Virus record (IMG/VR): IMGVR_UViG_3300005043_000004
Span: 1-6,652 of that record
Source: a virus
Strand: one strand, 5' to 3'
Length of the DNA stretch: 6,652 nucleotides
Shown here: positions 1,154-1,588 of the stretch, piece after piece
Numbering within the stretch: position 1 is the stretch's first letter
Layout of the letters: every line of letters starts with the position of its first letter
Notes under the pieces: model-generated
Database searches by the model: none
What the model was told of the DNA's origin: nothing
What the model saw: the letters and a program-made list of their open reading frames with translations, nothing else
Program-made: the position numbers and the translations under genes

Positions 1154-1588
1154 ATGCCGAAGAAAAAATATACAATTGTTAAGTCTGATTTGCTCTTTGC
1201 GAGGCGCTGGATAGATAATAAATTTAATGCGAAAGATTATAAATCATTTAGTGTTTATATGAGAAATCGACAATGCGTAGATTTTGCTTTACAAGAATAT
1301 CAAGAAGTTGATTTCAGAGCGACTACAAAGCTGAACGAATGGTGCGAAAAGTTTCTCACATCAAAAGATTGGTCAAAGTTAAAAACATCAATTAGGGCAG
1401 GTAGAAACCGTAAGGATAAAGGTAATAGAAAGTCTATAGATATAGACTTTGAAGCGTGGTGTAAGCTTTCTGCTATTTCTGATTCCGAAAGTTTGACTAT
1501 TTCTGAAATTATTAATAAGTATTTAAATAAACAGTATTTAGTAGCGCTTGAATCAGATGCTAAACTCCAAACTACTATATTTGATTAA
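1154..1588 (+). CDS. MatP-like DNA-binding protein (helical N-domain plus ribbon-helix-helix), an accessory gene of the phage
   Basis: 144-aa ORF with a good SD. Residues about 58-124 ([66 protein letters not shown]) align by eye with remembered E. coli MatP ([70 protein letters not shown]). Shared motifs are K..IRA.R.R, RKSID.-F..W..L and T.SE.I. Length is similar (144 vs 150 aa). The coding call is firm. The family assignment needs an HMM or structure check. Confidence 0.6.
   Translation: [144 protein letters not shown]

Follow-up and report, generated by a model that had tools for sequence, protein, structure and literature searches.

Why a filamentous phage should carry a gene resembling matP, whose bacterial product organizes the terminus of the chromosome, and what the phage protein could do on a small circular replicon, are the questions raised by the virus record IMGVR_UViG_3300005043_000004 of IMG/VR. 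The 6,652 nt analyzed here (the window) comprise the 6,553 nt of a circular inovirus genome plus a terminal overlap of 99 nt; positions 1-99 recur exactly at 6554-6652, so the record is circular and gene I runs across the junction. The gene in question, open reading frame (ORF) 144, directly follows gene I (pI) on the same strand, and is itself followed by a 439-nt non-coding region and then rep (Table 1). An initial annotation, made from the letters alone, had proposed that its product is a homolog of MatP and, correctly, that it lies outside the core inovirus gene set. Our data support the homology. Moreover, they lead us to favor, with moderate confidence and from sequence comparison, a model in which ORF144 is a DNA binder of MatP architecture that represses itself through four upstream palindromes and forms a MatP/matS-like complex on the replicative form of the phage.

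ORF144 and its relationship to MatP

ORF144 is under purifying selection when compared with a sister phage that is 89% identical (ratio of nonsynonymous to synonymous substitution rates, dN/dS, 0.14 at a dS of 0.40), and is thus a real gene. This sister phage was the sole match in an IMG/VR search, and is represented by contigs of 6.6-6.7 kb in several metagenomes. Among profile models, Pfam MatP_C (PF17414) matches residues 92-125 of ORF144 at 30.8 bits (cut-off 24; E=3.8e-7), the Pfam N-terminal domain of MatP (PF06303) is sub-threshold when searched with ORF144 alone (16.3 bits; cut-off 27), and the NCBIfam MatP equivalog (NF003471/PRK05097) is matched with E=3.7e-11 at 43.3 bits, far short of the 165 bits that would denote orthology. 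A phmmer search against PDB sequences returned MatP chains only (7nyw, 1.9e-6; 4d8j, 4.8e-4; 3vea, 2.8e-3). The alignments place ORF144 KSIDIDF opposite MatP KSIDLDF and reproduce the motifs that had been noted by eye. The two proteins are similar in length (144 aa vs 150 aa), and identity to E. coli MatP is 18%.

Structural prediction agrees with these data. An AlphaFold model made from the family alignment (predicted local distance difference test, pLDDT, 90.5) has N-terminal helices at residues 10-25, 34-51, 57-67 and 70-89, followed by ribbon-helix-helix (RHH) helices at 99-112 and 116-134 and a short helix at 136-142. ORF144 is therefore predicted to adopt a four-helix bundle followed by an RHH domain, which is the two-domain architecture and fold of MatP (PDB 4d8j, 3vea/3veb, 7nyw). 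When this model was compared with the PDB by Foldseek, the top seven matches were all MatP (probability 0.99-1.00, TM 0.47-0.55), and generic RHH proteins followed only at E~3, with ParG first, then CopG and Arc. Profile hidden Markov model (HMM) searches and structure comparison, two of the checks that the initial annotation had suggested, both point to MatP. MatP reads matS via α4 and β1, which insert in the major groove (PMC8669397). Both elements are kept in ORF144, as the α4 motif K-x-x-IRA-x-R-x-R and the strand KSID, and they are the best-conserved motifs of ORF144 and its family.

To define that family, phmmer was run with ORF144 over 1.84 billion cluster representatives (E<=1e-3). This search recovered 163 clusters at 50% identity, nearly all of 120-150 aa and aligned from residue 1 to ~130, with E values from 5e-23 to 1e-3; the closest relatives, at 37-45% identity, are other metagenomic and mobile-element proteins. 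The family shares the motifs LNxWCEKxL, LKxAIRAxRxR and TLSxVIE, which ORF144 fits over its full length. A profile of 61 members matches PDB 4d8j/7nyw/3vea at 1e-15 to 5e-14 across MatP residues 15-131, which indicates that both MatP domains are homologous. Individually, 24 of the 61 are matched by Pfam MatP_N (E<=0.01) and 21 by MatP_C, and automated annotation already tags some family members as 'MatP/YcbG family'. Nevertheless, all 178 family proteins score 44 bits or less against E. coli MatP, compared with 321 for MatP against itself. By these sequence measures, the ORF144 family is a divergent sister family of MatP and its members are not MatP orthologs.

The contexts of the family extend from phages to plasmids and chromosomes. 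Members occur in at least three inovirus lineages. P0004 (41% identity to ORF144) belongs to a different inovirus with a Phage_CRI Rep, Zot, DUF2523 and Phage_Coat_B, known from a 6,057-nt contig and also in prophage form beside host genes, while P0005 (37%) adjoins a Phage_CRI/G2P_X_C Rep and a helix-turn-helix (HTH) repressor. P0159 (31-32%) lies amid ParB, MobA/MobL, integrase and RadC genes in an element resembling a plasmid or an integrative and conjugative element (ICE). By tblastn against PLSDB, a family member is present on 747-754 plasmids, ~710 of them predicted to be conjugative, in Klebsiella, Salmonella, Escherichia and others. The one plasmid inspected is IncC (pEC12-1b, NZ_MT559995.1; gene at 4995-5369 of locus L028), where the family member is the backbone 'hypothetical protein' WP_000868820.1 of 124 aa, adjoining an rhs gene. 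P0166 and P0170 (31-33%) are chromosomal, with conserved thiE-thiD-X-mazG synteny, and the NCBI name of P0166 is that of a Zetaproteobacteria metagenome-assembled genome (MAG). This synteny was observed at loci L009-L012 and L014 (genes at 10001-10384 and 10001-10369), where every gene has a matS-type site upstream and another inside it; L011 is the record named as a Zetaproteobacteria MAG. The conserved synteny suggests a MatP-like role on chromosomes beyond the enteric clade.

These distributions bear on the origin of the phage gene. Were ORF144 a recently captured host matP, it would mark an enteric, Vibrio or Pasteurella-type host, as the initial annotation had hinted. The resemblance to MatP at the level of the family is the sole point in favor of such a capture. 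The equivalog score and the low identity to E. coli MatP speak against it, as does the absence of any canonical MatP among the 178 relatives (0/178) and the occurrence of the family outside Gammaproteobacteria. We therefore reject recent capture as exceedingly improbable. The inference of a host clade fails with it, since the family is also found in Zetaproteobacteria, in the ICE/plasmid-like element and on IncC plasmids.

Palindromes upstream of ORF144 and its relatives

The 151-nt gap between the pI stop codon and the ORF144 start codon contains four 13-bp palindromes of the form GTTACC-S-GGTAAC, which start at -150, -115, -66 and -31 relative to that start codon. Allowing up to two mismatches, GTTACCSGGTAAC occurs five times in the window against 0.04 expected, and none of 200 shuffles reached five. 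Four of the five matches occupy 1004-1135, past the stop codon of gene I and before the ATG; the fifth, inside gene I, is missing from the sister phage, so its function is doubtful. All four intergenic positions are retained in the sister phage, where substitutions keep or improve each palindrome, and the two phages differ in 5 of 52 site columns vs 37 of 99 spacer columns (Fisher p=2e-4).

The matS consensus is GTGACR-N-YGTCAC. The phage sites share its layout, a 13-bp palindrome of 6-1-6, and differ from it at two positions per half-site, so that the dedicated array of matS-like yet distinct palindromes described in the initial annotation is borne out. Their arrangement on the replicon is different, however: MatP sites are spread over the chromosomal Ter region, whereas all conserved ORF144 sites crowd into 132 bp at the gene's own promoter, immediately before its start on the 6.55-kb circle of the phage, with no Ter-like dispersal.

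The coupling of gene and site is a feature of the wider family. GTKAC-type palindromes were found just upstream in 12 of 13 family loci, E. coli matP included. In its strict form, GYKAC-N3-GTMRC, the pattern has 15 matches in the 1.6 kb that immediately precede ten family genes, vs 6 in the other 112 kb of these loci. Two loci, L029 and L030, were inspected only after the palindrome pattern was fixed: P0007 (L029) has a perfect site, GTTACTGAGTAAC, at -55, and P0009 (L030) has the perfect site GTTACAGGGTAAC at both -58 and -29. The IncC gene is preceded immediately by the palindromes GTTACATGTCAC and GTGACATGTAAC, which have a 2-bp and not a 3-bp spacer (GTTAC-AT-GTCAC). E. coli matP, likewise examined after the pattern was fixed, is preceded by a perfect palindrome, GTTACACGGTAAC, at 13-25 nt from its ATG, with half-sites identical to those of the phage sites (L027 3461-3473, corresponding to about 1018460-1018472 of K-12 NC_000913.3). 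Host MatP may thus also autoregulate, and the presence of a phage-type site at E. coli matP suggests that autoregulation is ancestral in the superfamily.

Where promoters could be recognized, they overlap these sites. A TTGAAA-16-TATAAT promoter (11/12) of a second inovirus has the palindrome placed exactly in its spacer, and in L025 the -10 element lies inside the palindrome. In the window, the candidate promoter has site 3 in its spacer and is closely followed by site 4, and the sister phage has an equivalent arrangement, TTGCAT-17-TACTAT. Among the functional hypotheses of the initial annotation, autoregulation has good comparative support of this kind. The number of sites also varies with context. 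Inovirus copies have four (window), four (L024), or three flanking the gene and four elsewhere (L021, with one of the latter inside the gene and the others at 492, 3028 and 4312), compared with one or two upstream sites for chromosomal and plasmid copies.

An internal matS-type site was also observed in many family genes (L021 6860, L024 3126, L016 10274, L009 10259, L014 10259). Its bases encode V-T-L-S, at either the RHH strand or the helix motif TLS, and because this requires specific synonymous codons the internal operator may be under selection. The window gene does not have this internal site.

An alternative is that the palindromes are structures of single-stranded DNA (ssDNA), for instance a signal for packaging or the hairpins of a minus-strand origin, to which ORF144 is adjacent only by chance. 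The region 1000-1153 indeed folds far better than shuffled sequences (z=-7.7; -5.4 in the sister phage). Moreover, the 439-nt intergenic region downstream of ORF144 has no significant ssDNA structure (z=-1.0), so origin or packaging hairpins are not placed there. Nevertheless, the two phages differ in which sites are predicted to pair (1 with 2 and 3 with 4 in one phage, 2 with 3 and 1 with 4 in its relative), and pairing between sites is expected of any set of identical palindromes. What the substitutions between the phages preserve is each palindrome and not the complementarity between sites, and the same type of site is found upstream of family genes in double-stranded chromosomes and plasmids. 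A strong separate hairpin also exists at 3333-3397. We therefore regard a purely ssDNA role as decidedly unlikely.

A proposed complex on the replicative form and its rivals

Taken together, these data are consistent with the following mechanism. ORF144 would act as an RHH dimer, obligate by virtue of its fold, and its dimers would bind the four sites between gene I and the ORF144 start codon, reading them as MatP reads matS, with the α4 helix and the RHH strand KSIDID. Since the candidate -10 element lies between sites 3 and 4, binding would shut off transcription of ORF144 itself. Occupation of all four sites would assemble a compact nucleoprotein complex, similar to MatP/matS, on the double-stranded replicative form, and this complex would handle the replicative form (its retention, positioning or segregation) in the chronically infected cell. 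Homology and comparative anatomy point to the binding and autorepression steps. That the array does more than autoregulate we infer weakly, from the higher number of sites in inovirus copies and from the conserved C-terminal tail, which the inovirus-associated subfamily alone has kept.

This tail merits description. In MatP, the C-terminal coiled-coil tail, comprising the last 20 residues, mediates tetramerization and ZapB binding (PMC7394560). Significant alignment of ORF144 to MatP stops at about residue 131, and the ORF144 tail occupies the position of the MatP tail; measured from the T-L/I-S motif to the end it is short, as had been stated, with 30 residues against 37 in E. coli MatP. Its motif, Y-L-x-x-L-x-x-D-x-x-LQ, is present in 7 of the 178 family proteins, confined to the closest relatives of ORF144 and including all three inovirus-context proteins. 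The IncC protein, which belongs to the ORF144 family by HMM, has no such tail.

We consider a MatP/matS-like tag for retention or positioning of the replicative form to be the most economical reading. Its main rival is that ORF144 is an ordinary autoregulated phage transcription factor with no DNA-organizing or cell-biological role of the MatP kind, perhaps also keeping transcription of the structural operon from running on into the origin/rep region. This account is plausible, if less probable. RHH proteins are typically repressors, and CopG, Arc and ParG follow MatP in the Foldseek ranking; operators overlap promoters throughout the family; and the conserved sites all lie at the 5′ end of ORF144, with no terminator separating it from gene I. 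Conversely, its only conserved targets would be its own operators, leaving such a regulator with no visible output, and two small divergent ORFs between rep and gene V already occupy the usual repressor position. The four-helix domain and the conserved tail would be superfluous for a simple RHH repressor, and the site number is higher in inovirus than in chromosomal copies.

The small phage and plasmid repressors Arc, Mnt and CopG share with the ORF144 family the RHH fold and a palindromic operator that overlaps the promoter, but they are single-domain proteins of 45-90 aa, whereas ORF144 adds a MatP-specific N-terminal domain with a DNA-reading helix. Like ORF144, the RHH partition proteins ParG, omega and ParR combine an RHH dimer with a repeat array upstream of their own gene that serves as operator. 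Unlike them, ORF144 adds a four-helix domain, and its phage has no ParA/ParM-type NTPase among the ten ORFs of the window.

Several observations weigh against a complex on the replicative form. Cooperative repression alone can account for four operators. The ORF144 tail has no significant similarity to the tetramerization/ZapB tail of MatP, and as no host could be assigned to the phage, neither a ZapB nor a MukBEF partner can be assumed. The promoter is a further weak point. The initial annotation had given the gene its own Shine-Dalgarno sequence and promoter candidate; the former holds, but a consensus sigma-70 scan of the + strand at 1003-1153 found no promoter, and the candidate at 1084-1112, recognized by eye, is below the scan threshold. 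No terminator was found between gene I and ORF144, so that ORF144 could be expressed by read-through from gene I.

A reverse search adds to these points. Public collections were searched for paired TACCSGGTAAC sites, which yielded 6 viral contigs and at least 120 metagenome contigs. Among the 126 matches listed, a full-length family member is present in only 2 at E<=1e-5 and 7 at E<=1e-2. In all, an RHH gene related to the family is carried by 34 of these matches, mostly one of a distinct type: 32 encode a different ~86-aa RHH protein (MAQTTAQRQAAYRARR...RRLDMWVSTEADLALARLARRYSVTKRQMLERLI...). The reverse search is thus only partly positive. In addition, the GTTACCSGGTAAC palindrome is found in the neighborhood of IS66-type transposases at 18 loci among the matches listed. 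Because paired sites mostly occur without a family member, a MatP-like protein cannot be diagnosed from a matS-like site alone; at least two protein families use this palindrome as an RHH-type operator. The case for ORF144 as the cognate binder therefore draws on the association of gene and site, and on conservation between the two phages.

The ~86-aa proteins (consensus MAQTTAQRQAAYRARRATAGxxGNGxRRLDMWVSTEADLALARLAxRY...) align with the family by hhalign in the RHH domain only (probability 77%, E=2e-5), and have no match in Pfam or the PDB. Their gene cassette strikingly resembles that of the family in its layout, with sites at about -54 and -25 and another ~270 nt after the start codon, just past the stop codon. 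The genes (L034, L036, L039, L067, L087 and about 27 other loci) are thus framed by the GTTACCSGGTAAC palindrome, and have a further site inside the gene (CGTTACTCGGTAACG). GTTACCSGGTAAC was also observed as plain tandem arrays, for example with 12 copies at a 28-nt period in L147; L055, L147, L085 and L139 represent the IS66-type neighborhoods and the tandem arrays together.

The similarity of ORF144 to MatP raises the further possibility that it is directed at the host: by binding matS-type sites, by forming mixed dimers with host MatP, or by titrating ZapB or MukBEF, it would alter division or Ter segregation during chronic infection. Its position after gene I is an accessory ('moron') slot, and its DNA-reading elements are nearly those of MatP, from which the RHH strand differs by a single residue. 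The phage-type GTTAC...GTAAC site at E. coli matP makes cross-recognition conceivable, and IncC plasmids with a family member live in MatP-bearing hosts. Despite this, we judge a host-directed effector unlikely: the phage sites depart from matS in each half-site, the family extends to organisms in which canonical MatP/ZapB is not expected (Zetaproteobacteria, for example), and neither an identified host nor significant similarity to the ZapB-binding tail connects ORF144 to this machinery.

A broader proposal, which is drawn by analogy with the unloading of MukBEF by MatP-matS and which we regard as a long shot, is that gene and sites together comprise a portable cis-acting device by which small circular mobile DNAs (inovirus replicative forms, IncC plasmids and ICE circles) would deal with the structural maintenance of chromosomes (SMC) or division machinery of the host. 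In one branch of this proposal, the device would evict loop extruders of the MukBEF/Wadjet group and so escape SMC nucleases that restrict plasmids; in the other, it would anchor the DNA at mid-cell, ensuring inheritance by both daughter cells without an NTPase. MukBEF is a known phage target (T7 gp5.9), MatP has been termed a specialized unloading factor, and complexes of the Wadjet group clear circular plasmids (PMC7617805). The contact with MukBEF (joint/MukE) is described in the literature for canonical MatP only. These precedents make the SMC branch a legitimate hypothesis of low probability and high value.

Regardless of which role is correct, the cassette appears to be previously uncatalogued. 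ORF144 has no match in GenBank phages by DNA or tblastn and no counterpart in PHROGs or the BFVD viral fold library, and PADLOC defense-system models do not match it. No paper on a phage- or plasmid-borne MatP homolog or on MatP autoregulation was found in a literature search that lay outside most subscription-journal papers, nor was literature on any sister-family member found in what was searchable. The initial annotation, which knew of no phage-borne version, is upheld to that extent. These data thus reveal a large unstudied sister family of MatP in filamentous phages, on ~750 sequenced plasmids, on an ICE-like element and on non-enteric chromosomes. What is new is that the MatP fold and its DNA-reading mode would be deployed on mobile DNA as a self-contained, autoregulated cassette of gene plus sites. 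Should the versions on mobile elements have functions beyond self-regulation, they may represent a minimal, NTPase-free means of positioning small circular replicons, or of escaping SMC surveillance; the IncC copy makes this idea directly testable in E. coli.

Other features of the phage genome

Table 1. Features of the window, with positions counted from the first letter of the 6,652-nt stretch.
Feature	Position	Strand	Remarks
Zot/pI ATPase (gene I)	about 6427 to 1002		runs over the window ends
Orphan near-site GTTACCGGGCAAC	361-373		1 mismatch; inside gene I
Site 1 GATACCCGGTAAC	1004-1016		1 mismatch to GTTACCSGGTAAC; 2 nt past gene I stop; identical in sister phage
Site 2 GTTACCGGGTATC	1039-1051		1 mismatch; perfect palindrome GTTACCCGGTAAC in sister phage
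Candidate promoter TTGCGT-17-TATTAT	1084-1112	+	8/12 consensus matches, by eye only
Site 3 GTTACCGGGTAAC	1088-1100		perfect; in candidate promoter spacer; ATTACCGGGTAAC in sister phage
Site 4 TATACCGGGTAAC	1123-1135		2 mismatches; between candidate -10 and Shine-Dalgarno; perfect GTTACCGGGTAAC in sister phage
Shine-Dalgarno AAGGAG	1138-1143	+	10 nt before ATG; read from sequence
ORF144, MatP-like protein gene	1154-1588	+	ATG start, TAA stop, 144 aa
Predicted N-terminal four-helix domain, residues 10-89	1181-1420	+	AlphaFold, MatP alignment
Last N-terminal helix, residues 70-89	1361-1420	+	K-x-x-IRA-x-R-x-R; equivalent to MatP α4
RHH domain, residues 92-134, strand RKSIDID	1427-1555	+	MatP_C, AlphaFold, Foldseek
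Short C-terminal tail, residues 135-144	1556-1585	+	part of Y-L-x-x-L-x-x-D-x-x-LQ
Rep_trans/RstA-type replication protein	2028-3335
Small ORF, 51 aa	3408-3563	-
Small ORF, 69 aa	3675-3884	-
Gene V-sized ORF
PHROG-4800 ORF
Major coat protein, 45 aa
Gene III-like ORF, 458 aa
DUF2523/pVI-like ORF

The remaining genes place the phage at some distance from described inoviruses, the nearest of which share ~30% identity in Rep and ~42% in pI and have mixed hosts. Scans of genome collections with ORF144 and with Rep gave no match and assigned no host, scans with the relatives P0004, P0005 and P0009 likewise gave no match, and an Rfam scan of the window was also negative.

The interval from the rep stop codon to the end of ORF50, which converges on rep from the minus strand, contains a long and nearly perfect hairpin at 3333-3397 (stem of 19+4 bp; ssDNA z=-6.9), a candidate bidirectional terminator or packaging signal. 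Beyond it, the two small minus-strand ORFs lie between rep and gene V, divergently oriented. The 69-aa ORF, in the usual position of an inovirus repressor, appears RHH-like by eye (ATIRIKQSTYDKWEKIA); neither it nor the 51-aa ORF has a significant family match. Just upstream of rep, an AT-rich block at 1969-1997 (CAGATATATGTATATTAGTATATATTATT) is unchanged in the sister phage, where the intergenic region overall has 86% identity to the window, and may be the rep promoter or the plus-strand origin. Within gene III, Gly/Asp/Ser/Thr-rich tandem repeats at 5653-5812, with periods of 42 nt and 6-21 nt, are a typical flexible pIII linker and account for a local GC peak of ~0.5.

The window was also inspected for a dif/XerCD attachment site, which was rejected: the best matches reach 16 of 22 positions, as do 11 of 50 shuffles, and the dif-like junction of the second inovirus does not carry over to this phage. 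The second inovirus (L021 1-127 and 7006-7155; L022 790-932) is integrated, flanked by a 127-nt phage repeat. Its host junction in L021 lies at the end of a dif-like repeat, CGTTCACATAA-TCACAACA-TTATGCCGAAT, ~180 bp from the MatP-like gene, and a second dif-like site with a 6-nt center is found 113 nt upstream.

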